64,000 nt of DNA from Alphaproteobacteria bacterium (GCA_965214705.1 CBDCCI010000002.1:704001-768000), one strand, 5' to 3'. Shown: positions 5,051-55,772, numbered from the stretch's first letter. Program-made: numbers and translations. The notes: a model not told the origin generated them from the letters alone.

Positions 5051-5053
5051 AAT

Positions 5054-5689: not shown

Positions 5690-5691
5690 TT

Positions 5692-5994
5692 GTGAAAGAT
5701 CTATATGGAGTACTGGCCGCGATCAAGTCGGTAACAGCAGAGTGCGAATCTAAGGGGTGCGAAGCCGAATGGTTTTTGTTTGGCTCTTTTCTGGATCACA
5801 ATATGGTTTCCGACATTGACTTTCTTGTCATTGCACCTGAAGGTGGGTGTATGGAATTCATAAGAGTTGAAGTCGAAAAAGTTCTACCTACATTTCCAGT
5901 GGAGTTGACAATAATGTCACAGGCTGAAGAGGAGGAGTTGAATTTCCTTGCCGTTACAAGGGCTCGTAGCATTGCTGATATTTGTGACGAATGA
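5692..5994 (+). CDS. Minimal nucleotidyltransferase (Pol-beta superfamily)
   Basis: WFLFGS...SDIDFLVI (GS + DxD motif); 100 aa. Confidence 0.8.
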   Translation: MKDLYGVLAAIKSVTAECESKGCEAEWFLFGSFLDHNMVSDIDFLVIAPEGGCMEFIRVEVEKVLPTFPVELTIMSQAEEEELNFLAVTRARSIADICDE

Positions 5995-6054
5995 GGATGT
6001 CATTGTCGGGGGGATGGCACGCTGCGGATTTTCCCAATGTTAATCTTTTATTGC

Positions 6055-7029
6055 TCACTCAAGACCATGATGCCTGCGAACGTGCCCGGACTTCCACGCA
6101 AGCATCGGCATGGCACGGATTCGCGCCCGAATTTCAGGCTCGACATCGAGAAGATCGGCGTCGATCTCACCGCGGTCGAGGACATCATCGAGAAACCTCC
6201 GTTCATTGGCCGAGAGATCGAACAGGAACGTGAGTCGTTCGCGGCAGAGTGCGGCGGTGTGCTCGATCCACGTGCCGATATTCTTACCATCGGCAAGGGG
6301 ACCACGCGGCAGGCAGACGGCGAGGTTCTGACGAAACTCGCGAGGGTCGCACGCAATGGTGTCGGTTGACGCCATTCGCCAATCGCGTCGGTTGCAAACG
6401 CCGATGGCCAGGACGGCGGCCTTGATCCAACCCCAGTTGAGCCCCTCGATCGACAGGATGCGGCGCACGTCGAAGAAGTCGCGTGCGGCGTGCCGGTCGA
6501 AGAGCGCCACGATCTTTCCGGCGACGATCTCATGGAGATCGAGGACGAGAACGCGGCTCGTCCGAGACTCGCCGAAGAGACGGGACTCCATGCGGGTCGC
6601 GCCGAACAGGGGCTGGCGCGCCATGTAGTTCACATCCAGTTCAAGGGAGGCGTTGCCACCGAGAGCGGAAGCATAGCGCAATAGCCATTTGCCGCCGGCG
6701 TGCTCTGTGGGACGGTGCCGGACGGCGTAGCCCTGCGAGGCAAGAAGGCGGTCGATCGCGGCATCGACGTGAGGCCGTTCGCTTTGCATCGTCGTCAGGT
6801 CGAGCGCCCCGATGTAGTTCAGGTCGATGTCCACCGAGAGCCGGTCGAGATCGAGGTGGAAGACATTGAGCGCCGTTCCGCCCTTTAGGACGAGGCGTTC
6901 GGACAGCATCGGGTCTCCAGCAATCTCATCCAGCAAGTCCAGGAGCCGCAGCACCTTTTCCAGCGTGTCCGGCCGGTATCCGGTCTCTCCGGCAAGGCGC
7001 TGCAATGTCTGGACGGTGGGCGGCGCCAT
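6055..7029 (-). CDS. AbiEii/AbiGii-family nucleotidyltransferase toxin (type IV TA)
   Basis: LEKVLRL, LVLKGGTALN, RLSVDIDL, K..ALFDR..ARDFFD. Confidence 0.9.
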   Translation of the reverse strand: MAPPTVQTLQRLAGETGYRPDTLEKVLRLLDLLDEIAGDPMLSERLVLKGGTALNVFHLDLDRLSVDIDLNYIGALDLTTMQSERPHVDAAIDRLLASQGYAVRHRPTEHAGGKWLLRYASALGGNASLELDVNYMARQPLFGATRMESRLFGESRTSRVLVLDLHEIVAGKIVALFDRHAARDFFDVRRILSIEGLNWGWIKAAVLAIGVCNRRDWRMASTDTIACDPREFRQNLAVCLPRGPLADGKNIGTWIEHTAALCRERLTFLFDLSANERRFLDDVLDRGEIDADLLDVEPEIRARIRAMPMLAWKSGHVRRHHGLE

Positions 7030-7839
7030 TCACAGCCCCTCGAACCGGCGTTCGGCGACGTCGGCAGGAAGGATGACGTTCCAGTGCCTGGCCGTCCTTG
7101 CCGATCCAGGTTTGGCGCCCAGCGCATACCGCGGCCGGGAGGGCGCCAGCGCCCGGAGATCTTCTAGCGCACGTTGCGGCACACCCAGCCGCTCTTGTTC
7201 GTGCTCCAGCCAGAAACCGAGTGCGCCGGCAGCCGCGGCGTTGCCGCGCGCGCGCGCATGCCGAACCAATGCCCCGGCGTCAACGCGCGCCACCAAGTCA
7301 AGCGAGTTGAAAAGCTCCTCTGCACCTCCGGCAAGATCGTGACGGTCGAACAGGTCCGCGATGGTACGCTCCAGTGTCGTCACCTTGACATCCAGCCCCA
7401 GGCGATCGACCACCGTCACGCCGTCCGTCGCCGCTCCGTTCGGTCCGGTGAAGCCTCGAGGCGGCCTGACGAACCGGCAGGTAAGGCCGTAGGCCTCGAA
7501 CATGCGCGGTTCACCGGGGGCGATGACCTGCACGTCGTATCCCTCGGAATATGCGTAGCCGTGCAGCTCCAGGGCCGAGTGATAGGCGATCACGCCGCCC
7601 GGGCGAAGCCGCGAGGCCGCCAGGAAGCGGTCAACGGACCATGTTCGCGCATCGGCGTGCTTGGGGACGGACGCAAAGACCTCGCGGGCGATGCGTCGGA
7701 TGTTGCCCGCTTTGAGATGCTGGGCGAGCATCGCCGTGACAACCTTGTCGTTCGGCTCGCGGCCGACGGCAGTGGCGTATTCGGTGCGGCGGAAGACAGG
7801 ATGCGCGCTGAAGAAGGGTGCTGATATGAGCCGGGACAT
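7030..7839 (-). CDS. AbiEi-family antitoxin / transcriptional regulator
   Basis: IAYHSALELHG, VKVTTLERTIAD and WNVILP; abuts the AbiEii gene. Confidence 0.85.
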   Translation of the reverse strand: MSRLISAPFFSAHPVFRRTEYATAVGREPNDKVVTAMLAQHLKAGNIRRIAREVFASVPKHADARTWSVDRFLAASRLRPGGVIAYHSALELHGYAYSEGYDVQVIAPGEPRMFEAYGLTCRFVRPPRGFTGPNGAATDGVTVVDRLGLDVKVTTLERTIADLFDRHDLAGGAEELFNSLDLVARVDAGALVRHARARGNAAAAGALGFWLEHEQERLGVPQRALEDLRALAPSRPRYALGAKPGSARTARHWNVILPADVAERRFEGL

Positions 7840-8053: not shown

Positions 8054-9232
8054 TTACGGCGGGGGACTCTCGCCGTCATCACCCAACAGGTTCCCGCCGA
8101 TGCTCTCGGTGATGCGCGACGCGGCAGTCTGCATGGAGTCCCGCGCCAGGTGAGCATAGCGGGCCGTGGTCTGAACCTGGGTGTGCCCGAGGAGCTTCCC
8201 GATCATGGTCAGGCTCTCGCCGAGCGCCAGCGCCCTGCTCGCGAAACTATGACGTAGGTCATGAATTCGCACGTCCTCAAGGTCCGCCCGCTTGCGGATG
8301 CGCCGCCAGGGTCGTTGAAGGTCGGTGAGGTGAGTGCCGGGCAGCTTGCCCGCGATGACCCACGGATTGTCATCCTCGCGGGGAATGGCTGACAGCACGG
8401 CTCGTGCCTCCGGCCCCAGCGGCACCGCCCTTCCGCCGGTCTTGGCATCGGGAAGCTCGATGCAGTCTCCCTTCACATTCTCCCACTGCAAGTCCCGGAT
8501 CTCCGACATTCGGCACCCCGTAAGCAACAGCAGGCGGAAGGCCGCGACCGCGGACGGCATCTCTTCCTCCGCCTCGCGCAGCACCTCCCCAAGGCGCGCA
8601 ACCTCATCCTCCGACAGGAACCGCTCGCGCTGGTGCTCCTTGTAGCGCTTCACATGCCGGCACGGATTGGAGCCGTCTTGGCGCCAGCCCCACACCTCCG
8701 CGAGGTTGAAAAGCTTCGAGAGAACTCCCAGGGTCCGGTTGGCCTGGTAGGGCTTGTCCCGCAGGCCGTGATGCAGGGCGGCAATGTCCTTGCGCTGAAC
8801 CTCCGAGACCCGCATTTCCCCCATCACGGGGTCGATGAACAGCTTCACCGACCGGCTGTACTCCTGCTGGGTGCTCGGCTTGCAGTGATCGGGCACATAC
8901 TCCTTGAGGAACCGCGCGGTCAGCTCGGCCACAGTCGGCTCGGCCTCGCGCTTGGCCTCCCCGTCCCGGGGGTCGATGCCCTTCTGCGCAAGCGACAGGA
9001 TCTCCAGCGCCCGGGCTCGAGCCCGGTCCGCGCTCACCACCCCGGGGGCGCCGATGGTGTACCAGCGAAGCTTCCCGTCGACGCGGGTCTGGACGACATA
9101 GACCTTTCGCCCTGATCGACGCACCCGCAGCCCGAAGCCGGTGAGTTCGCCGTCCCAGTAGACGGTATCGGTGCCGTCCGCCTTGATGGCGTCGACGGAT
9201 CGCTTGGTGATGCGGGGAATTCGCTTGACCAT
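8054..9232 (-). CDS. Tyrosine integrase (P4-like, with arm-binding domain)
   Basis: TGCRMSEI, HDLRHSFAS, LGHTQVQTTARYAH; adjacent to the tRNA-derived att site. Confidence 0.95.
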   Translation of the reverse strand: MVKRIPRITKRSVDAIKADGTDTVYWDGELTGFGLRVRRSGRKVYVVQTRVDGKLRWYTIGAPGVVSADRARARALEILSLAQKGIDPRDGEAKREAEPTVAELTARFLKEYVPDHCKPSTQQEYSRSVKLFIDPVMGEMRVSEVQRKDIAALHHGLRDKPYQANRTLGVLSKLFNLAEVWGWRQDGSNPCRHVKRYKEHQRERFLSEDEVARLGEVLREAEEEMPSAVAAFRLLLLTGCRMSEIRDLQWENVKGDCIELPDAKTGGRAVPLGPEARAVLSAIPREDDNPWVIAGKLPGTHLTDLQRPWRRIRKRADLEDVRIHDLRHSFASRALALGESLTMIGKLLGHTQVQTTARYAHLARDSMQTAASRITESIGGNLLGDDGESPPP

Positions 9233-9294
9233 GCCGCGAGGGCATATCATGCTGGCAAACTATTGGCAAACAGAATCGAACAACTCGGAGACCC

Positions 9295-9601: not shown

Positions 9602-9886
9602 ATGGAGATTCGGAGCATCCGCCACAGAGGGCTGAGGCGGCTTGTTGAAGATGACGACACCAGGGGAATCCGGCCCGACTTGACCGTAAGGATACGGAGC
9701 ATCCTGGCCTCCCTCATCAGCGCCGCTGACATGGACGGCGTTGAGGGGCCGCCGGGCTGGCGCATCCATCGGTTGTCCGGCGACCGGGCCGGAACTTGGA
9801 GCATCAGCACCTCCGGCAACTGGCGGATTACCTTCGATATTCAGGATGGGGCAATCGCGAACCTGAATCTGGAAGACTACCACTGA
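9602..9886 (+). CDS. higB: HigB/RelE-like toxin
   Basis: MEIRSIRHRGL...PGWRIHRLSGDRAGTWSISTSGNWRITF...NLEDYH. Confidence 0.9.
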   Translation: MEIRSIRHRGLRRLVEDDDTRGIRPDLTVRIRSILASLISAADMDGVEGPPGWRIHRLSGDRAGTWSISTSGNWRITFDIQDGAIANLNLEDYH

Positions 9887-9948
9887 CGGGCGAGTGCTTA
9901 TCTCACCGATGACACAGGCCACGATCTGGATATGAAGGACTGTCACCG

Positions 9949-10254
9949 ATGAGCGATGAACGAGTAAGGATCGGCATGACGCCGCCGCACCCTGGCAGCT
10001 TCATCCGCACCGAAATTCTGGATGAGCTGGGTCTCACGGTCTCTCGCGCCGCCGACATTCTCGGCGTGCGGCGGGCAACACTTTCAGATCTAATCAACGG
10101 AAAAGCGAGCCTCTCACCGGAAATGGCGCTCAGGATCGAGAAAGCGTTCGGGGTTTCCATGGACACGCTCTTGCGCATGGGAGCCTGGTACGACAGCCAC
10201 GCGATGCGCCGCCGCGCCGACGAGATTGACGTCAAGCCCTACCAGTCTACCTAG
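9949..10254 (+). CDS. higA: HigA antitoxin (HTH)
   Basis: PPHPGSFIR...LSDLINGKASLSPEMALRIEKAFG. Confidence 0.92.
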   Translation: MSDERVRIGMTPPHPGSFIRTEILDELGLTVSRAADILGVRRATLSDLINGKASLSPEMALRIEKAFGVSMDTLLRMGAWYDSHAMRRRADEIDVKPYQST

Positions 10255-10299: not shown

Positions 10300-10975
10300 A
10301 TAAATTACGTCAAGTACTCAAACGGAGCGACACGGTTTTGTTCATCGGTTCGTGAATTTCGACGTGGTCGGGCCTTCCCTCGTGCCTGGCGCGGTCGAAG
10401 AGTTGGCACGGTTTCTCGAGTCAGCTGGCGTCGATCCTGACCTCGTGAGGGCCGAAGCAAGAAAAGGCGATCTCGTCCAGGCGGCGAGCTACGGACTGGA
10501 CCGCTTGACGAAACAACAGATGGGTGAGTTCATCTGGAGTCCATGTCGGTGCGGGACAGCATGGCCAGAGGAAATCCATCGAAATATCGTCAACCTGGGA
10601 CCACGAGACTACGTCACCACCAACTACGACGACCTGATCGAACAGAGCCTTCGCAAGTGGCATGAGAGCCGACCCTTCCGAACGGTAATAAACCGTCACC
10701 TCACAGAGACGGCTGCCATCGCCCGGACACATGCCAGCGACTACGTGTTCAAGCCGCATGGAGACGCCGGCGACATGGACAGCATCATCATGTCGAGGGA
10801 GCAGTATCGGGCACTACTACCTCAGGGAGGCGATGCGGGCGTCCGGCAGCGCATGCTGCAACGGGTTTACCGCTCCACAAGATTCCGCAGCCCAAACAGG
10901 ACGTGCAAAAGCAACCTATGCCGGCTCCGACGGCGCGATGTGCACTACGATGCTGTCGCCGGTGTGAACGACTAG
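10300..10975 (+). pseudogene. SIR2-like domain protein, disrupted
   Basis: VLFIGS*ISTWSGLPS (nonsense codon 10353-10355), then a frameshift; VTTNYDDLIE and FKPHGD motifs follow; C-terminus appears truncated. Confidence 0.75.
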
Positions 10976-11343
10976 ACTAGGAATTCCAGCGGTCCGAGCG
11001 CGCCAATTGGGACCCTTAGCGCGGCGTCGGCGAAGCCGTCCGGCGGGGTCTTGCGGACGTTCTCGGGGGCGAGCCCGAGCCGGGGGAAGCGGAATCTGCG
11101 GATGCGCGATTCGGCCCTGGGGCGATGCGGTTCATGCCATTCTCCATCGGGGTTGCCTCGGCACGGCGGGGTCGGTCCGCCTGGCCGTCCTCAACGCCTG
11201 CCCCGATCCGACCCCTCCGGCTCCCGAAGGCGTCCCCGCGAGCCTGCGGCGCGAGGCTCAGTGAGACGGAGCCGGGTTTGAGCGAATAGCGGGTCTGGAC
11301 CGAGGGACATTCCCGGGTGGGCGGACCGGTCCAGTTGTGCTAG

Positions 11344-11492
11344 GGAACCTCTGATTTATCAGGGGTTCCCGTGGCACAGGGATGTGCCACCATTTTCGGT
11401 GGCTGTAAGTCGCTGAAAATGTGAGCAAAGCGGAAAGCGCGCTTCCGCCTTGCGCGTCTGAGAAATGCAGGAGGCACTTATTCAGACCTTCC
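11344..11492. mobile_element. 149-bp MITE, IS5-family-like ends (copy 1)
   Basis: Imperfect TIRs GGAACCTCTGATTTA...TATTCAGACCTTCC; flanked by a CTAG duplication (11340-11343, 11493-11496). Confidence 0.9.
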
Positions 11493-11505
11493 CTAGCTGT
11501 TGTTG

Positions 11506-11787
11506 ATGGCCGGACCGACCGGAAACATCGAGGCCGTCGCGCGCGCCGTGTGCGCGAAGAGATTGGCGCACGACGGCAAGACCGAGGAGCAGCTCGCCAC
11601 CGACGTGGAGATGTACAGGCATGTCGTCGCTTCCTATCTGGAAGCCGGCGTGATAGACGAATCCGGGCGAGAGGTCCGGGATCTGAGCTGGGACGAGAAG
11701 CTCGACATCACTGGAGACTGGCTTGGAAGGCTTCCTGAGTCCGCGGCGGCATGGCGGAACGCGCGGTGCGGGTCGACGCTAGCGTGA
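11506..11787 (+). CDS. Small hypothetical protein, probable first gene of the operon
   Basis: Its stop overlaps the next ATG (TGATG at 11785-11789). Confidence 0.55.
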   Translation: MAGPTGNIEAVARAVCAKRLAHDGKTEEQLATDVEMYRHVVASYLEAGVIDESGREVRDLSWDEKLDITGDWLGRLPESAAAWRNARCGSTLA

Positions 11788-13121
11788 TGGAGCGGCTGGC
11801 CATACGCGAGGTTCCGCGGCTGCGAGTGTCGAAAGAGGTTCGCAGGCCGAAGCAGTACGACCCGGCCAGGGAGTATCGCTTTCGCTACAAGTCGAAGAGG
11901 CACTCGCGACTTCCACATGTGGTGAAATTTTCGGGGGGCCGATCGAGCGGTATGCTGTTGTTCGCGCTTCTGGAAAACGGATTTCTCAATCAAGAACGAG
12001 GGGATGTCATTGTCTTCAACAACACGTCGGCGGAACATCCAGACACATACAGGTTTGTTGGGGACTGCATGCGGACAGCCCGGAACTATGGCATTCCATT
12101 CTTCCAGATAGAGTTCCAGACCTACGAGGATGCCTGGCGGGGCGAGTTTACGAGAATGCCCACGTACAGGCTTGTGAACGACCGGCCGAAGTCGGAGACG
12201 AACCCGGACGGGTTTCATTGGCGGGGCGAGGTGTTCGAAGAGCTGCTGTCCTGGAAGGGTTATGTGCCCAACAGGTTCCAGCGGATTTGCACACAGCATC
12301 TGAAGCTTGACGTTACGCGGAGTTTCCTGAGGGACTGGTTGGCCTCCAAACCGGCGATTCCGAGGCTGGGGCATTACGGGAATGGCTCAAGAATCGATGC
12401 GGACGCGACTTATCGGAGACATCGAGAGAACAGGGGTGAGGTGCCGCGAGAGATATTCGTCGACAAGCGTTCCTATGTTTGGGGACGACCGCATGCGAGG
12501 CCAGAGCAATGCTATCGGGATTTCTGCCCGGATTGGGTGCCGTTCGAGAACGAGGCCTTGAAAGGAAAGACGTTCGGTGACAGGGCGCGGTTCGGGAAGG
12601 GCGGCGTAGAGTATGTAGCGTTCATCGGGTTACGGGGCGACGAGCCTCATCGGATCGAGAGGGTGGAGACCCGGAACGAAGGCGATTCGGGTTACGAGGG
12701 TGAACATGTGTATATGCCGCTCGACGACATGGCGGTTACGCGGGATGACGTGAACAGGTTCTGGGAACGCCAGGACTGGGATCTGGCCCTGCCAAAGGAG
12801 ACGAGCCTGTCAAACTGCGTTTTCTGCTTCTTGAAGGGTTTGGGGAGTCTCCACGATATTCGAGATCGAATGGACGATGCGCAGAATGACAGTATCGAGG
12901 GTTTCGGGACGCTGGAAGAGACGCCGAGTGATCTGGCTTGGTGGGCGCGCGTTGAGTTGAAGTATGGGCGCGATCTGGAGGCGGAGGGGCGGCAGGTGCG
13001 CAGCAGCGCGACCCGGATCGGGTTCTTCGGAAGCGACAAGTTCACCTATGCGGACGTGGCGGAAGGTTCGGTTCCGGGCGAGCTGACCGAAGGCATGTTG
13101 CCGTGCGATTGCACGGAATGA
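11787..13121 (+). CDS. PP-loop adenine-nucleotide alpha-hydrolase (PAPS-reductase/DndC-like), Cys-rich, probable Fe-S
   Basis: FSGGRSSG PP-loop, FNNTSAEH, RICTQHLK, IGLRGDE..R, SNCVFCFLK, terminal PCDCTE. Alternative start at 11751. Confidence 0.85.
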   Translation: MERLAIREVPRLRVSKEVRRPKQYDPAREYRFRYKSKRHSRLPHVVKFSGGRSSGMLLFALLENGFLNQERGDVIVFNNTSAEHPDTYRFVGDCMRTARNYGIPFFQIEFQTYEDAWRGEFTRMPTYRLVNDRPKSETNPDGFHWRGEVFEELLSWKGYVPNRFQRICTQHLKLDVTRSFLRDWLASKPAIPRLGHYGNGSRIDADATYRRHRENRGEVPREIFVDKRSYVWGRPHARPEQCYRDFCPDWVPFENEALKGKTFGDRARFGKGGVEYVAFIGLRGDEPHRIERVETRNEGDSGYEGEHVYMPLDDMAVTRDDVNRFWERQDWDLALPKETSLSNCVFCFLKGLGSLHDIRDRMDDAQNDSIEGFGTLEETPSDLAWWARVELKYGRDLEAEGRQVRSSATRIGFFGSDKFTYADVAEGSVPGELTEGMLPCDCTE

Positions 13122-14269
13122 CGCCGAGACCGATCTACCTCGACAATCAGGCGACCACACCAATGGACCCGTCGGTGCGCGAGGCCATGTGGCCTTGGTT
13201 GTGCGGGCAATTCGGGAATCCTCATTCGCGCGATCACGGGTTCGGCTGGGAGGCCTCTCAAGCGGTCCGGGAGGCGCGCGCGAGGGTCGCGCAGTTGGTC
13301 AATGCTGATGACGACGAGATCGTGTTCACGTCAGGGGCGACGGAGTCCTGCAACCTAGCGCTGCGCGGCGTGGCTGGGCAGCAAAGAAACGGAGAGCGGA
13401 GCCGTATTGTCACGGTATCGACCGAACACCCAGCCGTCATGGAGACGGTTCACGACCTGGGCAGGTCCGGGTTCGACGCGGTTGTACTGCCCGTCAGAGC
13501 GAATGGCCTGATCGATTTGTCGGAGTTGGAAGAGGCAACCGACGAGCGGACCTTACTGGTGTCGGTGATGGCCGTGAATAACGAGATCGGCGTAGTGCAG
13601 CCTCTGTCCCAAATAGCGAAGCGATGCCGAGAAGTGGGGGCGCTGTTCCATACGGATGCGACCCAGGCGGCAGGAAGATTAGGAATCGACGTAGAGGAAT
13701 GGGACGTGGACCTGCTGAGTCTTTCGGGGCACAAGGTTTACGGGCCGAAAGGCGTTGGCGCACTGTTCGTACGATCCGGCGTCGATTTGAGAGCGATTAT
13801 TACGGGCGGAGGTCAGGAAAGGGGGCTGAGAGGGGGGACGCTGCCTGTCCCGCTCGTGGTCGGGTTGGGCAAGTCCTGCGAAATGGCGTTGGAGAAGCAG
13901 GCCGATGATTGCGAGAGGATGCACACCTTGGCCGGGCGGCTCTACGCCTCGCTTCTCGACATTCGTCCAGACATGCGTCTGTTCGGGGACATGGACAAGC
14001 GCATCGCCGGGAACCTGAGCATAGGGTTCCCGGGGGTCTTGGCGGAGGAGGTGATTGCAGCGGTTTCGGATCGACTGGCCGTTTCAAGCGGTTCGGCGTG
14101 TTCGTCTACGAGCCTGGAGCCGTCGCGGGTGTTGATGGCTCTCGGCTTCGATGAAGAAACGGCTGTGACAGGGCTCAGGATAAGTCTGGGTCGGTTCACG
14201 ACGGACGAGGATATTGACGAAGCGGTGTCTGTTCTGACCAATTCAAAGATCATTTCCCGTAGAAATTGA
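13118..14269 (+). CDS. Cysteine desulfurase (IscS/NifS/DndA class)
   Basis: YLDNQATT, FHTDATQ, SGHKVYGPKG (PLP lysine), SSGSACSS (catalytic Cys). ATGA overlap with the upstream gene. Confidence 0.95.
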   Translation: MTPRPIYLDNQATTPMDPSVREAMWPWLCGQFGNPHSRDHGFGWEASQAVREARARVAQLVNADDDEIVFTSGATESCNLALRGVAGQQRNGERSRIVTVSTEHPAVMETVHDLGRSGFDAVVLPVRANGLIDLSELEEATDERTLLVSVMAVNNEIGVVQPLSQIAKRCREVGALFHTDATQAAGRLGIDVEEWDVDLLSLSGHKVYGPKGVGALFVRSGVDLRAIITGGGQERGLRGGTLPVPLVVGLGKSCEMALEKQADDCERMHTLAGRLYASLLDIRPDMRLFGDMDKRIAGNLSIGFPGVLAEEVIAAVSDRLAVSSGSACSSTSLEPSRVLMALGFDEETAVTGLRISLGRFTTDEDIDEAVSVLTNSKIISRRN

Positions 14270-16398
14270 AAGCCATGACAAGGAAAGAGCCTGACCTGCG
14301 CTTCGGTCCGGGAAGCAGCGGGGGTTTCACACCGGCCGGTATCGCGGCCTTCGACAATCTTCGCCCTGCGGCCGTGGTTCGCGAGTTGATTCAGAACGGT
14401 CTGGATGCTGCCAAGAACGCAGACGAGCGGCCGGCTGTCGTGACGTTCAGGCTGGAGCGGAGGCCGCTGGCTTCGATACCGGGTATCGAGAGCTACAGAC
14501 GGGCGTTCAGGAAGGCAGTGGAACGGCAGCGCGAAATGGCCGATGGATCACTGCCGGATCAGGCGGAACTTGTCGTCGCACGGATGACCGATGCGCTCGA
14601 TAGCCAAGAACTGGATTTCCTGACCGTAATGGACAACGGCATTGGGCTGAACGAGCAACGCATGAACGCGTTGCTGAGCGACGGCGTAAGCGTGAAGCCA
14701 GGCGGGGCAACCGGCACGTATGGAAATGGGCATTCGACGGCCATTCCCGTGTCAGATCTCAGATACGTGCTGTACGGGGGCATTTCGGATGGCGGACTGC
14801 GGATCGGATCCGGACATGCGGTTCTCGCGTCTCATGTGGAGGCAGGGGATCGGTATCTGCGCGGCGGCGACGGGTTCTATATCAGGGATTTCGCAGCAGG
14901 CCGCGGCACGCTCTACGACTATGCCCGAAACGGAGAACTGCCGGAGCTGATCGAGGAGGCGTTGGCGGACGTTCGGGAGGCTTGGGGTCGGGGGACAGCG
15001 GTCATCATTCCTGCATTCAACAATTTCCTGGAAGACGAGACACTCTGGGAAATGGTCTCGCATGCTGCGTCGGCGAACTTCTTTGTAGCGATCGATGACG
15101 GCGATCTCGAGGTGGTTGTGGAGGACAGGCGGCCGGGGACAGACAGCGAGAAATGGATAGTGGACAAGGCCCGGCTGGCGTCGGTGCTCGTGACTCACAA
15201 GGAAAAGCGGCGGGCCAGGGCCTTCCTGAACGGGAAGAGGGCATTCGAGGGATACGAGGCCTATCGAAGAGGCAAACGCCAGACGGTGACGACGAGCGCA
15301 GGGAAGATCGGAATTTCCTTGAAGCAGGACGTTAAGGAACCTCTGATTTATCAGGGGTTCCCGTGGCACAGGGATGTGCCACCATTTTCGGTGGCTGTAA
15401 GTCACTGAAAATGTGAGCAAAGCGGAAAGCGCGCTTCCGCCTTGCGCGTCTGAGAAATGCAGGAGGCACTTATTCAGACCTTCCTTAAGGGGATGACGCG
15501 GGTCGACCTGTTTCGCAACGGGATGTGGGTTACAGACAGGATTCCTGGGTTCTACCAGAAGTTCACGGATCGAGTGCCGTTCCATGCGGTGCTCTCGCTC
15601 GATGCCGAGCAGGGTCGCGATCTGCACGACTGGATTCGGATTGCTGAGGGGCCCTTGCATGACGCGATCATCGTGAAGCGATTGCCGCGGGCTAGGCGGA
15701 CAGCCTGCTATCAGGCGCTCAGAGAAGTGGTTGACTGGCTCTGTGCGAACACGGAAACAGTATCCTCGGACGAGTACATGTCGCCGGATTTCCTGACGCT
15801 CGACTTCGGGGATGAGGAAGGCGGCGGGACCGGTCGGGTGCGGAAAGGACGGTTCTGGGGAGCACCAGTTCCTGTCGGCCGGGCGCCTGCGCGCCAAGTG
15901 CCGTTGTTTCGGGTGGACCCGGACTCGGAAGAGACGGAAGAGAGGGAGGAACGCCAAAACCGAAAACGTCGCGAGCGCGACAGGGAACGGAGGCATGATC
16001 GTCAGCGACAGCGGCCTTCCCTGCCCAGGTTTTTTCAGGCTGCATCCTGCCCGACGGGAGAGAACAGGCGCCGGATTGTTGTTGAGTGCGCGCGCGACTA
16101 CGCGAATGCCGAGTTACGGCTGGTGGTCGATGAAGCACTGGATGCGACATGCGAAAGGCACGGCCAGGATGGGTACGCGCCAGCGGTCCTGAGCGGGGTC
16201 ACAATCGATGGCAGGGCTGTGAATAACAGAGAGCTTGTACGCTGGGACGACAAGGTGGTGGGAGTAAGGTTGGGAGACCTCATCGCCGGCAGGTCGGTGG
16301 AGGTGGAGGCCGATTACAGGCTGGATGGCGAGTTTGCGGACTTGCTCACACCTTCGCTCAGGGTTGAGGTTTTCGCCGGGGAGAAGGACGAGGGCTAA
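14266..16398 (+). pseudogene. GHKL (HSP90/MutL/MORC-like) ATPase domain protein interrupted by the MITE; ~659 aa when restored
   Basis: RELIQNGLDA, DNGIGL, GATGTYGNG, GTAVII. Removing the MITE plus one TTAA (153 bp) joins ...KQDVK to GMTRVDLFRNGMW in frame. Confidence 0.8.
15336..15484. mobile_element. 149-bp MITE (copy 2)
   Basis: Nearly identical to copy 1 (one visible substitution); TTAA duplication at 15332-15335 and 15485-15488. Confidence 0.92.
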
Positions 16399-16429
16399 GG
16401 CGTCTGCGTTCGTCTCGAATGGGGGGAGG

Positions 16430-17306
16430 ATGAGAAAGCCGTACTCAATTGTTGCGGTTGAGCCCGGGCCGTCGAATGCGATCAGGGCGCATCAGCACCC
16501 GATTCTGGAGCCAGGCAATCTGTCGTTTCCGCAAGGTCGATACGAGCTTGAATTCCTGCCTGGCGAGGATCGGGGGTCTTTTGAGGTGACGCATCTTGTT
16601 AGCGGGGCGCCTCTGATTACGCGGATGCTCGAAGAAACAGAAGCGCAGTGCGTCTGCATAGTGTCCTCACCGATCTCGTCGTATCGAAAAACACACATGT
16701 CGTCGACGGCACGGCAGAAAGTGAGCTGGGACGCGGAGGAACTAGGAGAGCCGCCATTATTTACGCCGATGATTGTATGCGCGGAAGCGCGCGACGTTGT
16801 GCTCAGCTCGTCCCGGGATGGCGTTCATAAGGTATGGGATGGCCAGAGTATATCGTTTCATCGGGGCTCAAGGCTGGCCCTTGGCGAGGTCATACGTTTG
16901 GAATCGTCGATCTTGCAATTGCTGTCGTTGCACGAGATGCCGGGGTTGAAGGATGGCCAGTTCGAGGTCGACATCGAAACAGAGCCGTTCAGGTTCCGGG
17001 TGAACATGAGCAGCTCGCTTCACCGGTTCCTGCGGCATCGAGAGGATGCGCATCGCTGGAATATCATGACGCACATCGTAACTGCATGCCTCGCTAGACT
17101 TCAGAAGGATCATGAGGCGGACGACGGTGAGAGCGGTTGGCAGTCGCATCGAAACCTGAAGGCATTTGCGGATTATCTGGAAGTCAACGGGCTAGAGCAT
17201 TGGACGGATTGCGGAGTTTCGCCCTGAAAAGGTGGCGACGGCGCTCTATCCGCACCTCATGCCGGAGTCAGGTTTCGGCGAAGCTGGCGTGAGCGAAGAA
17301 CAATGA
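16430..17306 (+). pseudogene. Hypothetical protein with probable 1-bp frameshift near 17209
   Basis: The ORF stops at 17227, but the shifted frame continues EFRPEKVATALYPHL...SEEQ* to a TGA overlapping the next ATG (ATGA 17303-17306). Could be a sequencing error. Confidence 0.65.
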
Positions 17307-18175
17307 GGGTGCTGGAGAGCCTTAAGGAACTGCGCGACAGTGACTATACGCGGTTCCGGAAAAGTCTGTTGAGGGTCAAGGGAAGCGACCTACAGAGAGA
17401 TTTTCTTGTAGAGGTGCGTTCGGGTGATGGTTTCCTGGAGAGACTTGGGCAGGTCGAAACGATAGGGACCAGGGAAGCCGAGCTGCTGCCCGAGCCGTTG
17501 ACGGAGCCGATGTTCAAGGAACCGCCGGCAGATACCGAGCGGATGTTGTATTCGTCCTGGTCGGCCGTCGCGCCAGCTCTGGCCTGTCGGTCGACCTTCT
17601 GGGCAGCGGTTACGCTCAACCATGTGCGGCATGGGCTTATTGATTCGGCATTTCTGGCGGCGAACGGAGGGAATCTCCCGGGGGGAGCGGAGCGCATCGA
17701 CTTTGCGCTGAATGACGTATCGAACAGCGGCCCGCAGCGGATAGATAACTGCGTGAGGACGGTGCTTCGGCGGCTGGGCGGGCTTCCGGAGGTACGAGGC
17801 AATCGTTCGGTGTACGTGGATTGCCCGTTCGCCAGGGCCTGGTGGCGCGAACGAATGATCGAACAGGCCTCAGCGGGCCGGGACGAAGTGGCGCAAAGCA
17901 TTCGGGCGGCATTTCGCTTCAGTCAGACCTATTGGGAGAAATTCATCGATCGGATTGTGTTCCGGAATTCGACATTCGGGTCGGAGAATATCCGGAGTTC
18001 CTTCGTGCGCGCACTTGCAGGGGCGCTACGGGACCATCCAGGTTCGGCACTGGAAAGTACCGAGGGCCTGCAGCGGGCCTGTCGACGGGCGACTGCATAT
18101 CAAGGGGGTCGGGAACTGAGCATTCTGGCGGATGACGAGCTGGACGAACTGATGAGGTGTGTCGTTCGATTGTGA
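17303..18175 (+). CDS. Hypothetical protein, possibly DUF6339-like
   Basis: 290-aa coupled ORF with FWAAVTLNH and PFARAWW motifs. Family assignment is from memory and unverified. Confidence 0.6.
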   Translation: MRVLESLKELRDSDYTRFRKSLLRVKGSDLQRDFLVEVRSGDGFLERLGQVETIGTREAELLPEPLTEPMFKEPPADTERMLYSSWSAVAPALACRSTFWAAVTLNHVRHGLIDSAFLAANGGNLPGGAERIDFALNDVSNSGPQRIDNCVRTVLRRLGGLPEVRGNRSVYVDCPFARAWWRERMIEQASAGRDEVAQSIRAAFRFSQTYWEKFIDRIVFRNSTFGSENIRSSFVRALAGALRDHPGSALESTEGLQRACRRATAYQGGRELSILADDELDELMRCVVRL

Positions 18176-18237
18176 TCGACGTTGGGCATGCGGTTGAGTT
18201 CTTTTGCCCAATCACAGCTAGATCGGAGTCTTCTTTC

Positions 18238-19572
18238 ATGAGCTGGAACGAGCGACGCGAACCATGGTCCTCGCAAGATGACGACGCGAGGTCGCAGTTC
18301 GACATGGACTACGCGCGAATAGTCCATTCCGCATCATTTCGGAGACTACAGGGTAAGACTCAAATCCTAAACCTCGGCGACAGCGACTTCTACAGAACAC
18401 GGCTTACCCACTCTTTGGAAGTTGCACAAATTGCAGGGGGAATAGTTCAACAGTTGAGAAAAGATTGCGTGAACCATGAAGCACGTTCGCTGTTGCCAGA
18501 GCATAGTCTCATCCAAACGATTGGCTTTGCCCACGATTTGGGTCACCCGCCTTTTGGCCACGGCGGCGAAGTTGCGCTAAATTACTGCATGCGAAATGAC
18601 GGCGGATTTGAAGGCAACGGTCAAACACTCCGTATCCTTTCTAAACTGGAGACTTTTTCCAAGAACAATGGCGCAAATCTGACACGACGCACTCTGCTAG
18701 GCTTGCTAAAGTACCCTGTTTCCTATAGTAGGGCTTCCGCAGAAGTGGAACAAGGGGATATGGAAACACCTGGGTCGTCTATCAAGATCATTGATAGACG
18801 ACGGTTTAAGCCACCCAAGTGCTTTTTGGATACCGAGGAAAGCGTGGTTAGGTGGATTTTGGAACCGCTGAGTCAGAACGATCGAAACACTTTTCTACAA
18901 ACGATCAAGGGGAATGATGGGGATCGTAAACCAGTACACAAGTCCTTCGACTGCACCATCATGGACGTTGCTGATGATATTGCATATGGCGTTCACGACC
19001 TGGAGGATGCAATTGAACTTGACTTGATATCGGAAAACAACTTCAGATGTTTGGTTCATGAGAAAGAATGTGTAACATTTCTGCGGTCTTTAGAACAACG
19101 ATATCCAGAGGAACCGACGGATTACGATTTTCTCGTGAAGAACTTGTTCAAAGAAAGAGCTACCCGCAAGCGTTATATTTCTCGATTAGTGCATCATTTT
19201 ATAGCGGACGTAAAGATGGGGGTCCAAGACAAGTTTTCCGACCCTCTCTTGCAATACCGGACCGGTCTCGATCCGGAGTCGACTACTTTTCTGAACGCAT
19301 TGAAAAGACTGATCCACGAAAGGGTCATCATGAGCCCCAGAGTTCAGCATCTCGAATTCAAAGGACAGCAGATGGTCGTGTCAGTGTTCGAGGCCTTGCA
19401 ATCCGATCCAAAGTCACTTGTACCGCGCGATGCCTTCCCCAATGTAAAGGGCGGAGAGTTGAATGATCGCTACATTTGCGATTATGTCGCTGCGATGACG
19501 GACGGGTCTCTTCTGAAGACATACGAGAGGCTCTTTAGCCCAAGAATGGGATCGGTTTTTGATCGACTATGA
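18238..19572 (+). CDS. dgt: dGTP triphosphohydrolase (HD family), probable anti-phage type
   Basis: FRRLQGKTQ, RTRLTHSLEVAQ, AHDLGHPPFGHGGE, FEGNGQT, DVADDIAYGVHDLED; lower GC than flanks. Confidence 0.93.
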   Translation: MSWNERREPWSSQDDDARSQFDMDYARIVHSASFRRLQGKTQILNLGDSDFYRTRLTHSLEVAQIAGGIVQQLRKDCVNHEARSLLPEHSLIQTIGFAHDLGHPPFGHGGEVALNYCMRNDGGFEGNGQTLRILSKLETFSKNNGANLTRRTLLGLLKYPVSYSRASAEVEQGDMETPGSSIKIIDRRRFKPPKCFLDTEESVVRWILEPLSQNDRNTFLQTIKGNDGDRKPVHKSFDCTIMDVADDIAYGVHDLEDAIELDLISENNFRCLVHEKECVTFLRSLEQRYPEEPTDYDFLVKNLFKERATRKRYISRLVHHFIADVKMGVQDKFSDPLLQYRTGLDPESTTFLNALKRLIHERVIMSPRVQHLEFKGQQMVVSVFEALQSDPKSLVPRDAFPNVKGGELNDRYICDYVAAMTDGSLLKTYERLFSPRMGSVFDRL

Positions 19573-19658: not shown

Positions 19659-20915
19659 TCAGACGACGCGAGCCGGTAGTTCTAGTTCGTGGTTGCCAAC
19701 CTCATTCCTGTACTTCTGGAGCAACTCGGCCTCGGCACGCTCCGATCGGTCCAGCATGTACAAAAGCAATTCAAGGAGAGTGCGCCTCGCGAAACGACGA
19801 ATCGTGCGGGTGGCCGGGTTCCACATCAATCCGGAATACGGGCTGGAGCCTAAGTCCCTCGGGAGTTTCGCCGTTTCCGCGACCGCGTCGACGAGGCCCA
19901 ATTCGTGCGTGAGGCGCGCGATGATGGTGACAAAAACGATCAGACCGGCGGGACGGAACAGGGCGCTCTCGTTCCGGTACCGGCGGACAACTGACTCGGT
20001 ATCCTCAGCGGAGAAGAAGTCACCCAGTTCGGGGAAGCCCTCGGCGAGCGCCTCGAAGAGTTCCCTCGTATGCCGGTAGTACTTGTTCAGGCGGTCGTCG
20101 TCCGGCCGGGACTTCTTCAGTTTGGCGGCCGAGGTGCGCAAGGGAATGTCGGCCAGCGTGTACCAGGTGAGCAGGATGTCGTAGAGATTGACTATGGTGG
20201 TGAGGCTCGTGACGTTGGACTGCGGCATGTTGCTCGAACCGACGAAGGCGATGCGGTCATCGCCGAACATGTCTGGGTTTTCGTCGATTAGCCAGCGGAC
20301 GGTCAACGCCATCACGTCGTCCTCGTCGAGCGCGATGACATCGAACTTGGAGACCGGCTTGGCCGTCTTGTTCAGGGTTGTAAATTGACGCCGGGTCCTG
20401 CGCAGGCCTTCGTCCGACTTCTCGTGCGCCACGAACATGACGGGGACCTCGTCAGTCTGAGCATGGGCGCTTAACTCCTCCACGGCGGCCTTGATTCCGG
20501 ACAGTCGGTGCTGGCCGTCGACCGCAAAAAGACTCTCGTCACCACGCAGGGTGAGGAAGCCGACGGATAGCATGGTGTCAGGAGACAGGGACTCGAGTTC
20601 GTCCGGGGTCCCCTTTTTCTGGACGTTGGTGAGAGGATGCCAGTTGGGCTGGCCGCCGTAGGTGGCGACGACGAGCGCATTGAAGAGGCGGTCCGGTTGC
20701 GTCGTGAGATAGTCGGCAATCTCCCTGGCCCGCTTGTCCTTCAGCTGGCGTTGGATCATCTCGGACAGCCGTTCGCTCTTGTGAAGCTCATCGGCGTAAT
20801 CAACCCGGCTTGCCAGGGTCGGCAAGTCGACTAGGCAGCAGTAGTAGACCCAGTCGCCCATCATGCCGCGGAGGGCGGGGAGCACGATCGAACCGGAAGT
20901 GCTCTCGTCGGTCAC
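19659..20915 (-). CDS. DGQHR domain protein (DndB-like)
   Basis: FAVDGQHRLSGI, QRQL...RAREIADYL, RRQFTTLNK.AKPV. Confidence 0.88.
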   Translation of the reverse strand: MTDESTSGSIVLPALRGMMGDWVYYCCLVDLPTLASRVDYADELHKSERLSEMIQRQLKDKRAREIADYLTTQPDRLFNALVVATYGGQPNWHPLTNVQKKGTPDELESLSPDTMLSVGFLTLRGDESLFAVDGQHRLSGIKAAVEELSAHAQTDEVPVMFVAHEKSDEGLRRTRRQFTTLNKTAKPVSKFDVIALDEDDVMALTVRWLIDENPDMFGDDRIAFVGSSNMPQSNVTSLTTIVNLYDILLTWYTLADIPLRTSAAKLKKSRPDDDRLNKYYRHTRELFEALAEGFPELGDFFSAEDTESVVRRYRNESALFRPAGLIVFVTIIARLTHELGLVDAVAETAKLPRDLGSSPYSGLMWNPATRTIRRFARRTLLELLLYMLDRSERAEAELLQKYRNEVGNHELELPARVV

Positions 20916-21478
20916 GAGAACGCCGCCATCATTGCCTTAGTGTCGGCTTCGATGTCGCCCTTGCAGCAAGGGGGGAGAAACGCGGTGATCAAACGCTGTT
21001 CCATGGCCTCGAGTTCCGCCGTGGTGACCTTGTCGTCGACGGGTGCGAAATGGAATCGCAGGATAGGGTGCCAATTGACGATCATCCACCCTAGTGCCGG
21101 TCGACGTCCCACTTCGCTCGGTTTGAAATAGTCCTGGTATCGGGCGCGCAGCGATCGGCGGGAATGGCGGCCGGCGATGCCGATGTACATGATGTAACCG
21201 TGCGGCGGCAGGAATGTGCGCTGGTCGGCGATGATGAAGGCGTATAGCCCTCGCTGATCGTTGGGAACATGCTGGATCTCGTTCTTGTCGAACCTGATGG
21301 AGTTCCAATGGAAAGGGTTCTCGGAAGGTTCAAGGGCGAGGATGGCGTCGGTGTTCAGGATAAATTTGATCTCGTACGCCCGAATTTCGGCCAGAGCGAC
21401 GTCCCTCTGTCGCGCAAGAGTCTCCATGTTCAGGGAGCCCAGGTCGGCTGGAGTGTCGGCGGACGGTGTGGACGGCAT
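20912..21478 (-). CDS. GIY-YIG-like nuclease domain protein
   Basis: GLYAF...MYIGIA...LRARYQDY...EQRLI..F.PPC. Stop overlaps the DGQHR start. Start uncertain. Confidence 0.65.
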   Translation of the reverse strand: MPSTPSADTPADLGSLNMETLARQRDVALAEIRAYEIKFILNTDAILALEPSENPFHWNSIRFDKNEIQHVPNDQRGLYAFIIADQRTFLPPHGYIMYIGIAGRHSRRSLRARYQDYFKPSEVGRRPALGWMIVNWHPILRFHFAPVDDKVTTAELEAMEQRLITAFLPPCCKGDIEADTKAMMAAFS

Positions 21479-23340
21479 AGGCGGGTGTACATCATTCTGC
21501 GGAGTGGGGCCGGGGGGAGGAGCGGACGCGCGACCCGCGCCGAAACGCGGGCTTCGGAGGAAGACCAGGACGACCATGCTCCTCCCGAGAGAGGATCAAT
21601 ATTTGTCCCGGTTCCGTCAAGATACCGTGCTCGCCCGCCCGTGTGCCCGACATCTCACAATCGCAGACCGGGCTCCGCAGGCCCCTCGGTGATTGCTGCA
21701 CCCTCCCTGCGTGCATGAGCAACGGATCAAGGTGTTGCCACTTCCAAGACGCGGGCTCAATGATTCGGGCGAGCACTCAACACCTTGATCATGGCCGGGC
21801 GTGGTTGACCGGCCGCTTGGTGCCAAGAATTCCCGGTGCTGCCCGTTGTCGCACTACAGCCATCCCCGCGCGCGGAATGCGTTGAGATCCACGCCGGGCG
21901 GCGCGTACCAGCCATCCGCCCCGTACCGGGCGCCCATGCTGTACGCCACTTCCTTGTTTCCGTAGGGAATCCGAAGCGGTGTTGGCGAACCCGCACTCGT
22001 CAGTGCCGTTTCGACCGGAGCTTTCGTCCGGACACGCTCCGGCCCGGACGTCCCACGCGAAGCTGTCGCTTTCTGCCTCTCCGTGCCCGGCCGGGTCCCC
22101 CCCCGGCTTGCGCGGCTTCCCGCCCCGTGACGCAGAACCGGCCGTCCCGCCGCCCGAATTCCTTCCCTCCCCCTGCCCGGAGTTCCGCCTCGGGGCATGC
22201 TCATCGAGGAACGCCCGGCAGATCGTGGCGGACTTCGTATAGCCCCTGGGCGGCTTGATCCCCTTGCTCTTCGCGATCGACGCGGCGAACTTCCGCATCT
22301 TCGCCGTCGGCGGCCGGTCCCCGCCGCGGCCATCGGCTTCGCCGAGGATCACGTCTTCTCCATCCGCGCTGCGCTCCCCGAGCCGGCCGATGATGCGCCG
22401 GGCCGAATCGCATACCGCGTCGATCGCCCCCGTCATCTCCTGCCGGCCGGTCAGCACGTCGTCCAGCAGGCACTCGAGCTCCGCCGTCACGCCCGGGTCC
22501 ACCAGCGCGGGATCGGCACGCTTCAGCACGCCGAACAGCGCGAGGCCCCGGTCCGTCGGCACGATGTTCTTGCCCTGCGCCGTCAGGAACCCCTGCTTCT
22601 TCAGGCCCGAGATGATCTCCGCCCGCGTCGCCGGCGTGCCGATCCCCTTGGCCTCCCGCAGCCGCTCGCGGAGCGCCTCGTCCTCGACGAAGCGCCATGC
22701 GTTCTGCATCGCCTCGATCAGCGTGCCTTCCCGGTAGCGCGGCGGCGGACGCGTCTCCTTGTCCTCGATCCCGGGATCGCTGAGCCGCGCGGTCTCGCCA
22801 TCCCGCAACGACGGCAGCGCCTGCGCCGCCTCGCCCTTCTCCTCGTCGGGCCTCCAGTCCGGAAAGGCGCCGCGCCAGCCGGCCTCGATGGGCTGGCGGC
22901 CGGTCGCCCGGAACTCGAATCCCCGCACGTCCAGCGTCACCGTGGTCTGGCGGTAGCGGTAGTCCGGCATGACCGAGGCCAGGTAGGACCGCGCGACCGC
23001 ATCGAACAGCTTCTTCTCGTCCGCCGTGAGACGAGGCCAGACCTCGCGCAGGTCGCCGATCCTGTTCACGTTGGGGACGATCGCGTGATGGCTCGCGCCC
23101 TCCAGCCCCTTGAACGAAGCCGCTACGCGGAGTTAGCGGCGTAGAGTTCATTCATTTCCGAGGCGTCGCGGGTGCCGTTTGTTCTGTGCGTTCGCTTCCC
23201 GGTTGCGTCAGTGGCGCTCCGCCCGTCGGGTGGCGGATCCCCAGCAGCCTCCCGATCACCAGTGGTTAGCATCGACCCCTGCGACGGACCGTCGCCGGAT
23301 CGGTCCGGCGGCGCGCCGTCGCGATCCAGGGAGATCGATA

Positions 23341-24219: not shown

Positions 24220-24225
24220 CGGCGC

Positions 24226-54075: not shown

Positions 54076-54087
54076 CCGATTATCTAC

Positions 54088-55771: not shown

Positions 55772-55772
55772 G

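Follow-up and report, generated by a model that had tools for sequence, protein, structure and literature searches.

A recently inactivated five-gene cassette in an alphaproteobacterial defence island, a candidate for an undescribed type of DNA-sulfur defence

We describe a group of co-directional genes in a stretch of 64,000 nucleotides (nt) from the genome of an Alphaproteobacteria bacterium (GCA_965214705.1 CBDCCI010000002.1:704001-768000), which we call the window and whose first letter is position 1. The genes, g1 to g6, encode a PP-loop enzyme related to 3'-phosphoadenosine 5'-phosphosulfate (PAPS) reductases (g2), a cysteine desulfurase (g3) and a trio consisting of a GHKL ATPase and two partner proteins (g4-g6), with a small gene, g1, in front of them (Table 1). 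An initial annotation, made from the sequence alone, proposed that all six form an operon for sulfur-based DNA modification and defence. The rightward open reading frames (ORFs) and the four stop/start overlaps that it described are present (TGATG at 11785, ATGA at 13118, TTGA at 14266 and ATGA at 17303), but the conserved unit consists of the five genes g2-g6, at 11787-18175. This is seen from 39 related loci, referred to by L numbers, five of which are from species genomes, 32 from metagenomes and two from one genome of the window's phylum; all were searched by tblastn with the proteins of the window and with divergent counterparts from L005. Although g1 is a genuine small gene, whose 16 homologues are 67-84% identical to it, it stands outside the conserved unit, since none of the 39 loci contains a match to it and since the homology of L011, which is 85% identical in nucleotides, is confined to 11780-18179. 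Scans of Pfam, PADLOC and NCBIfam assign g1 to no family.

Table 1. Coordinates of the cassette genes, of the inserted miniature inverted-repeat transposable element (MITE) and of adjoining genes in the window.
Feature	Position	Strand	Description
g1	11506-11787	+	93 aa; small gene, no family; outside the conserved cassette
g2	11787-13121	+	PP-loop PAPS-reductase-like enzyme; divergent SspD/DndC homologue
g3	13118-14269	+	predicted dedicated IscS/NifS-class cysteine desulfurase, SspA/DndA-like
g4, N-terminal part	14266-15335	+	GHKL ATPase gene, PDC-M33A-like; ends at the MITE insertion
g4, C-terminal part	15489-16398	+	GHKL ATPase gene; in frame with the N-terminal part when the 153-nt insert is removed
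g4, present ORFs	14266-15408 and 15457-16398	+	
g5	16430-17306 (ancestral stop 17304-17306)	+	PDC-M33B-like; present ORF 16430-17227
g6	17303-18175	+	all-helical DUF6339-like protein in the PDC-M33C position
MITE copy 1	11344-11492	+	149 nt; CTAG at 11340-11343 and 11493-11496; just upstream of g1
MITE copy 2	15336-15484	+	inside g4; TTAA at 15332-15335 and 15485-15488
Anti-phage dGTPase gene	18238-19572	+	separate known defence gene, between g6 and the DGQHR gene
DGQHR (DndB-like) gene	19659-20915	-	PF14072 1.3e-23, TIGR03187 5.6e-32
221-aa protein gene	20912-21577	-	no family; paired with the DGQHR gene

The g2 product carries the motifs that the initial annotation had ascribed to it. Its PP-loop, SGGRSS, spans residues 49-54, with S49, G51, R52 and S54 invariant in 57 homologues, and the five cysteines C168, C344-x-x-C347 and C440-x-C442, the last pair at the terminus, are invariant in the same set, at least 90% of which also conserve C94. 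The best PADLOC match of g2 is SspD (1.3e-9), followed by BrxP (1.7e-3). SspD is likewise the best match of four further g2 homologues, with BrxP or DndC next; its E values lie between 5.3e-8 and 1.1e-6 in three of these four (the L011 copy is not among the four), and the DndC matches are marginal (1.3e-3 to 4.3e-3). Alignment of the 57-sequence profile with eight true SspD sequences by hhalign gives a probability of 98.0 and an E value of 2e-13 over 175 columns, with the PP-loop, the single-Cys motif (C168), an R-x-D-E motif and the CxxC (C344, C347) all in register. The eight references come from a sample of the phylum in which 10 of 301 genomes, including the window's own, have SspD. g2 is ~170 residues longer than SspD, with insertions at ~105-145 and ~185-275 and a C-terminal extension that ends in the invariant and poorly ordered C-x-C tail. 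An AlphaFold 2 (AF2) model of g2 (pLDDT 89.6, pTM 0.91) has PAPS and adenosine 5'-phosphosulfate (APS) reductases as its top five VIA-align matches (Z 9.8-10.3, root-mean-square deviation 3.7-4.3, 183-197 residues of 203-227-residue targets). Given the PADLOC matches, the alignment with SspD and the reductase fold, we place g2 in the SspD/DndC/BrxP branch of PAPS-reductase-like enzymes, where it represents a separate lineage of longer proteins that escapes Pfam.

This lineage has 1364 members at E<=1e-3. Pfam domains are absent from all of the 120 matches listed, which are 60-94% identical, and the small number with a name are 'hypothetical proteins' of Poribacteria, Paracoccaceae and Gemmatimonadetes; two g2 homologues scanned against Pfam have no family at 1e-3. 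The named hosts of the g2 family are Gammaproteobacteria, Spirochaetia, Poribacteria, Paracoccaceae and Gemmatimonadetes, and in the window's own phylum it is found in one of 400 other genomes, a sparse distribution that is typical of mobile defence genes. Plasmid records contain no match to g2. Phage records yield six partial matches, none reaching 80% of the query length, the annotation being PAPS reductase or similar for three of them, NinC-like for two and hypothetical for one; a single distant locus is present in IMG/VR.

The g3 product is a complete cysteine desulfurase, as initially described, and matches PF00266 (class-V aminotransferase) over its full length (3.6e-79, profile positions 1-369 of 371). 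It is one of six Aminotran_5 genes in the genome. The PADLOC models of SspA and DndA are matched at 4.1e-145 and 6.6e-145 respectively, and the scores fall below the NCBIfam equivalog cut-offs for IscS, NifS and DndA. The translation contains His-Lys and Ser-Gly-Ser-Ala-Cys stretches, which we take to be the pyridoxal phosphate site and the catalytic site. From these matches we classify g3 as a dedicated desulfurase of the SspA/DndA/IscS class (group I). The suggestion that a PP-loop enzyme and a desulfurase here form a core of the phosphorothioation type agrees with the homology of g2 to SspD and with this class assignment of g3.

The trio g4-g6 had been likened to an ATPase-unknown-DUF6339 arrangement found beside cytosine methylases, and this arrangement is recognisable as the PADLOC candidate PDC-M33ABC. 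The N, G1 and G2 boxes attributed to g4 are present and invariant in 19 homologues (E40/N44, D123-N124-G127 and G150-G153-G155), but the gene itself is split by a 149-nt MITE (see below). g4 matches PDC-M33A at 2.9e-25 and reaches 21.2 bits with HATPase_c, below the cut-off of 26.4; the GHKL profile finds Hsp90 (6.1e-5) and MORC3 (0.016) in the PDB. g5 matches PDC-M33B (7.3e-5) and no family in Pfam scans, its profile finds nothing in the PDB below E 0.036, and ESM Atlas returns unnamed clusters and beta-sandwich look-alikes with TM-scores <0.5, together with one 'hypothetical protein' cluster at 0.64. g6 scores 21.6 bits with DUF6339 (PF19866), below the cut-off of 23.2, and its homologue in L005 scores 24.0 bits; it has no PDC-M33C match in PADLOC. 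The AF2 model of g6 is all-helical (pLDDT 93.1), and its comparison with the PDB by both aligners gives only what is noise for helical proteins (best Z 6.2 over 79 residues, best Foldseek E 0.56), with no usable match in ESM Atlas. A complex prediction for g5, g6 and g2 gave an unspecific score, nearly as high in a control with g5 replaced.

The counterpart of the trio is seen in genome G184, which has the one true DUF6339 member among 401 genomes searched. Here a C5 cytosine methylase gene (PF00145, 1.7e-63) is followed after 70 nt by co-directional genes for a GHKL protein, a 278-aa protein and the DUF6339 protein, with PADLOC matches to PDC-M33A (2.2e-91), B (2.1e-38) and C (8.5e-37). g6 aligns with this DUF6339 protein, and g4-g6 match PDC-M33 A-B-C in gene order and lengths. 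By these comparisons we place g4-g6 in a divergent sister clade of PDC-M33ABC. In a tree of the GHKL proteins (from a quick IQ-TREE search, rooted only at the midpoint), one branch with a Shimodaira-Hasegawa-like approximate likelihood ratio (SH-aLRT) of 100 separates 20 sulfur-linked from seven PDC-M33 sequences; since a single branch does so, the tree agrees with one origin for the coupling between trio and sulfur pair. The frameshifted or truncated sequences of L003, L016, L021, L031 and L037, the near-duplicates L019, L029 and L038, and also L047 and L054 were left out.

PDC stands for 'phage defence candidates', which were derived from genes found inside the loci of BREX, DISARM and type I restriction-modification systems and are candidates only; the main text of that source does not name PDC-M33 (10.1101/2024.01.29.577857). 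Twenty-six plasmid records, from Deinococcus, Bacillota, Actinomycetota and haloarchaea, contain PDC-M33A, and the neighbourhoods of eight of these were inspected. Six of the eight have the A-B-C order. The proposed link to cytosine methylases is borne out by the G184 methylase directly upstream and by dcm genes within 6 kb in five of the eight plasmid loci, although in three of these five the annotation places a restriction endonuclease next to the methylase. When annotated restriction genes are counted along with methylases, seven of the eight have at least one within 6 kb, and one inspected locus sits between type I genes and an MmeI-like gene. A conserved protein of ~76 aa with no Pfam family is encoded directly upstream of PDC-M33A in four of the six A-B-C plasmids (L047 5690-5920, L048 5671-5901, L049 5654-5893, L052 5665-5922) and in one sulfur-type metagenome locus (L026 21-191), and PDC-M33 may be a four-gene unit that includes it. 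g1 was considered as the counterpart of this small protein and rejected, there being no similarity between them.

The neighbourhoods of the g2 homologues show that the cassette genes co-occur in other genomes, as the initial annotation anticipated. The GHKL gene adjoins the PP-loop gene in 28 of the 39 loci, an arrangement far beyond chance given that the same genes recur together so often, and L004 has g6 at a contig edge. The desulfurase gene adjoins the PP-loop gene in 22 loci, and all three trio genes are detected in 23. In nine of the 11 loci without the GHKL gene the PP-loop gene lies at or near a contig end (L004, L020, L022, L025, L032, L035, L039, L041 and L042). The blocks occur in two orders, either PP-loop, desulfurase, GHKL, g5, g6 or GHKL, g5, g6, PP-loop, (DGQHR), desulfurase, and in both the genes are tightly packed or overlapping.

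Genes of kinds associated with phosphorothioation recur beside the cassette. Proteins with GmrSD_N/GmrSD_C (DUF262) domains, which we take to be the domain type of SspE, are encoded in L003, L004, L023 and L036, with fragments in L005 and L040. In L004 and L005 the PP-loop and desulfurase genes flank a gene for a DGQHR protein of 635-674 aa. L018 has a DGQHR gene directly after g6 and on the opposite strand (53% identity to that of the window), beside a homologue of the 221-aa protein (35% identity), which is the order seen in the window apart from the dGTPase gene there, and the window DGQHR gene is a probable accessory of the cassette. The 221-aa protein has no family in Pfam, PADLOC or NCBIfam; a motif impression of a GIY-YIG nuclease was dropped for want of library support. 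As a separate observation, L035 (3906-7736) and L042 (3416-7246) encode a 1276-aa protein with DUF559 and DEAD-helicase regions that matches DpdF models at 2.6e-81, within 3 kb after a g2 homologue cut by the contig end.

The copy of the cassette in the window carries two lesions. A direct repeat of 155 nt (11341-11495 and 15333-15487) contains two copies, 98% identical, of a 149-nt element whose terminal inverted repeats are imperfect and whose 4-nt target duplications are palindromic (CTAG and TTAA). There are 18 full-length copies across the genome at 95-100% identity, and the element is therefore an active MITE; its target preference recalls, we presume, that of IS5-family elements. In g4 the insert and its duplication add up to 153 nt and keep the frame, yet they bring in a stop codon at 15406-15408. 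The two halves of g4 are collinear with intact homologues of 617-679 aa, and the insertion site is empty in the GHKL gene of L011. In g5, one extra base near 17210 relative to L011 (a +1 frameshift) leads to a stop at 17225-17227, so that ~26 conserved residues at the C terminus, a conserved motif among them, are lost. The ATGA overlap with g6 at 17303, although present in the sequence, is therefore ancestral and not part of the present reading frame.

Both lesions can be followed in public contigs. Contigs from runs X1 and X3 of one study and X5 of a second span position 17210 without a gap and have the extra base; at both borders of the MITE they end 25-30 letters into the element, bridging being counted only from 31 letters, and none joins across an empty site. 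In run X6 of a third study, one contig joins 15331 to 15485, so that the MITE is absent, and a second contig lacks the extra g5 base, with 10 differences in ~1000 letters. This relative of window positions 15100-17400 is ~99% identical and agrees with L011, and is a single low-depth observation from contigs at depth 2-3. On the strength of these contigs and of L011, both lesions are real, recent and specific to the window strain. With g4 split by the MITE and g5 truncated, the cassette in this genome is a recent, inactive pseudogene, of which intact alleles exist elsewhere.

Established writers of DNA phosphorothioates are dnd, ssp, tdp and brxPCZL, the last known as BREX type 4 (PMC12914056, January 2026). 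The phosphorothioate systems studied need a protein with a PAPS-reductase domain and a nucleoside triphosphatase (NTPase), except that Tdp needs only tdpC, and the desulfurase may come from the system itself or be a housekeeping enzyme (PMC12914056). The cassette is like SspABCD-SspE in that g2 is homologous to SspD and has in common with it the PP-loop, single-Cys and CxxC motifs, g3 matches SspA, and DUF262/GmrSD-type proteins recur nearby; it differs in that none of its proteins matches SspB or SspC, its NTPase being a GHKL protein with two partners, and in the length, insertions and C-x-C tail of g2. With DndABCDE it shares a desulfurase, a PAPS-reductase-like enzyme and a DndB-like DGQHR accessory, and DndDE cores swap phosphorothioation enzymes and C5 methylases (PMC10853773), but no cassette protein matches DndD or DndE in PADLOC or NCBIfam and the DndC match is marginal. 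In BREX type 4 an enzyme with a PAPS-reductase domain replaces the DNA methylase within a multi-protein ATPase defence chassis (PMC12914056), and g2 has its weak match to BrxP; the chassis here is instead the trio of GHKL, PDC-M33B and DUF6339 proteins, PADLOC finds no BrxC/PglY, PglZ or BrxL among the cassette proteins, and the Pfam scan of 35 further ORFs of the window finds neither a PglZ nor a BrxC family. The statement of the initial annotation that the partners of Dnd, Ssp and BREX are not recognisable thus holds for the cassette and the ORFs scanned. TdpABC is likewise a compact system for phosphorothioation, and one DndC-like enzyme is enough for the modification there (PMC12914056). 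PDC-M33 shares the three families in the same order, and the ~76-aa upstream protein with L026, and differs in that the sulfur-linked trio is a separate clade, with weak scores, joined in one operon with g2 and g3. GHKL proteins are not mentioned in the cited passages of PMC10853773 and PMC12914056. A search of the main texts of open-access papers and preprints found no description of the cassette gene set and no publication on DUF6339 or PDC-M33, and the papers that it returned on TdpC, on SspD/SspA, on MORC/GHKL proteins in restriction-modification and on phage defence candidates do not describe it.

A separate canonical SspABCD operon is present on another contig of the same genome (G000:C1:313700-323200; L064 2755-12217), with matches to SspA (3.5e-128), SspB (7.6e-104), SspC (8.2e-302) and SspD (4.8e-107), and the organism probably phosphorothioates its DNA by this route already. 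Downstream of it are genes for a helicase (PbeA-like, 5.8e-17) and an MzaB-like GHKL protein (4.4e-14), so that a GHKL protein linked to a sulfur system is seen at this operon also.

The cassette looks like an undescribed type of DNA-sulfur defence. We suggest that g2-g6 are a mobile five-gene modification and defence system in the class of Dnd, Ssp, Tdp and BREX type 4, a PAPS-reductase-based modification-restriction system that would put sulfur into host DNA and in which the trio would act on DNA lacking the mark; we give this about an even chance of being correct. g3 would draw sulfur from cysteine as a persulfide and hand it to g2, which would activate a site in host DNA with ATP, most likely a backbone phosphate, and replace oxygen by sulfur (phosphorothioation). 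To handle the sulfur, g2 would use C168 and the C344-x-x-C347 pair, both common to SspD, together with its flexible C-terminal C-x-C tail. g4, g5 and g6 would form an ATP-driven DNA-handling chassis directed against unmarked DNA, and marking itself may depend on them too, just as it depends on BrxC in BREX type 4. The modification slot of the chassis would be exchangeable, a C5 cytosine methylase being able to occupy it in true PDC-M33, and DGQHR (DndB-like) and GmrSD/DUF262 proteins would be recurrent accessories. We favour this reading because the cassette fits the PAPS-reductase-plus-NTPase pattern of phosphorothioate systems, having an SspD-like enzyme, its own desulfurase, a new kind of NTPase (GHKL) with two partners, a slot of the methylase type and DndB-like and DUF262 accessories. 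It is further supported by the position of the cassette in a defence island beside an integrase gene and by the recurrence of phosphorothioation-associated genes, namely DGQHR in the window, L004, L005 and L018, and GmrSD_N. What the sequences show directly is the homologies, the fold of g2, the linkage of the genes, the lesions and the existence of intact alleles; that DNA is the substrate and phosphorothioate the product, that the role is defence and how the trio shares its tasks are inferred.

The fold matches of g2 below the PAPS/APS reductases bear on the substrate. They comprise the [Fe-S]-dependent thiolases NcsA (Z 9.3) and TtuA (Z 8.7), then TilS, GMP synthetase and LarE, and also include ThiI (Z 7.8) and, at Z 6.8-7.1, QueC and Cap9. 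The presence of NcsA, TtuA and ThiI in this list would suit an enzyme that thiolates a DNA base, by a chemistry like that of these tRNA thiolases, instead of the backbone; the insertions and C-terminal extension beyond SspD may mean a different substrate site, and the exchangeable partner in the slot, the C5 methylase, modifies a base. The relatives of g2 at the sequence level (SspD, BrxP and DndC) all modify the backbone, however, and we know of no DNA base thiolation system, so that a thio-nucleobase appears very unlikely to us and the backbone most likely as the site of sulfur.

The Cap9 match prompts another view, in which the target that the PP-loop/desulfurase pair modifies or primes is a protein or nucleotide belonging to the defence module, as QueC-like Cap9 acts on a CBASS cyclase, and in which the cassette would be a regulated PDC-M33 variant and not a modification-restriction system. 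PDB entry 9nto, 'Cap9-CdnD complex containing NDG modification', is among the g2 fold matches (Z 7.1), and since PDC-M33 is found in operons that have no modification gene, the sulfur pair could have been added for regulation. Against this, g2 is closest by profile to SspD, BrxP and DndC and closest in fold to PAPS/APS reductases (Z ~10, compared with 6.8-7.1 for QueC and Cap9), the DndB-like and DUF262 proteins nearby suggest sulfur modification of DNA, and the slot can hold a DNA C5 methylase; we see only a slim chance that protein or nucleotide priming is the role of the pair.

The initial annotation cast the trio as reader or effector, but it could equally be an ATP-driven targeting apparatus for modification, by analogy with DndD/E, SspB/C and BrxC. 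Taken further, this gives a Dnd-like logic, in which the trio would be a DNA-scanning machine that recruits a modifier, either the PP-loop/desulfurase pair or a C5 methylase, and restriction would fall to variable neighbours such as the GmrSD-like proteins or the DGQHR gene and its 221-aa partner. The DndD/DndE core has been described in exactly these terms, pairing with cytosine methylases instead of phosphorothioation enzymes (PMC10853773), and BrxC is needed for phosphorothioate synthesis (PMC12914056). Sequence searches of the trio, and the model of g6, revealed no nuclease, and GmrSD-type and DGQHR genes do recur beside the cassette. Yet a targeting machine would be without function in most plasmid PDC-M33 loci, which have no modifier in the same operon, in three of the five plasmid loci that have dcm close by the annotation shows a restriction endonuclease next to it, and accessory nucleases occur in a minority of sulfur-type loci (GmrSD in 6 of 39). 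We judge the Dnd-like arrangement unlikely, though it is the main alternative. A bolder reading, which we think improbable though not negligible, has the chassis as a discriminator of self and non-self that is indifferent to the type of mark, coupled either to 5-methylcytosine or, by a PAPS-reductase lineage invisible to Pfam, to a sulfur mark (a fifth phosphorothioation route with its own specificity, or a new thiolated base), the MORC-like ATPase clamping or compacting unmarked DNA and not cutting it.

Several observations weigh against a modification-restriction system of the kind we favour. The copy in the window is non-functional as it stands, and because the genome has a complete SspABCD a phosphorothioate signal in the organism would not be diagnostic for the cassette. 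For g2, no Pfam family, PAPS_reduct (PF01507) included, is matched at E<=0.01; Foldseek with its model returns nothing at E<=0.001 and PP-loop-core matches only (best E 0.012); and the g2-family hidden Markov model finds no solved relative among PDB sequences, its hits being to ribosomal protein L3 at chance level (E 0.2). No nuclease or effector domain is recognised in g4 and g5 by sequence searches, or in g6 by sequence and model. An adjacent desulfurase is missing from 17 of the 39 loci, and the trio is missing, despite room on both sides, from two loci, L001 (PP-loop and desulfurase genes) and L010/L046 (PP-loop gene beside a topoisomerase gene). Most plasmid PDC-M33 loci lack a methylase in the same operon, and the candidate system PDC-M33 may for this reason work without a modification partner.

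If the reading is correct, the cassette would be a fifth phosphorothioate writer beside dnd, ssp, tdp and BREX type 4, and one with a new sequence motif would be useful for mapping and engineering DNA backbone modification. It would also provide a first function for the PADLOC candidate PDC-M33 and for DUF6339, and a second example, after BREX and the DndDE cores, of a chassis that exchanges a methylase for a sulfur-inserting enzyme. As the g2 family is large and without a Pfam domain, surveys seeded on PAPS-reductase domains would miss it.

The surroundings of the cassette agree with the initial description of an integrated island among defence genes. The island has a GC content of 0.52-0.63, against 0.69-0.73 further along the window, and includes an integrase gene (8054-9250), AbiEii/AbiEi, HigB/HigA, a SIR2 fragment, the anti-phage dGTPase and the DGQHR protein. 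Its defence-type genes at 4316-7839 and 9602-10254 encode an HNH protein, which matches PADLOC PDC-M68A at 1.3e-29, the AbiEii/AbiEi pair and HigB/HigA. The SIR2_2/ThsA-like ORF at 10352-10975 (207 aa) covers ~positions 56-167 of the 478-position ThsA model and is probably the remnant of a larger defence gene. The dGTPase gene (NCBIfam NF041026 1.5e-161, above the cut-off; PADLOC dGTPase 1.8e-146; GC 0.52) is missing from the otherwise matching arrangement of L018, where the g6 and DGQHR genes adjoin, which suggests that it is a later insertion at the accessory junction of the cassette.

Further along the window, a topoisomerase gene is seemingly split into a Toprim and N-terminal part and a C-terminal part (21789-23069 and 25694-26839, both leftward), with a tyrosine integrase gene and a 419-aa ORF of unassigned family between them at 23179-25452 and a RecQ-type helicase gene following at 26836-28815; in L046 the g2 homologue adjoins an intact topoisomerase gene of this kind. 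A second stretch of low GC content (0.57-0.61) at 46000-56000 contains genes for a ParA-like ATPase, a second AbiEii-like protein, a tyrosine integrase (52746-53927) and a large serine recombinase (54089-55771), and is probably another mobile element.

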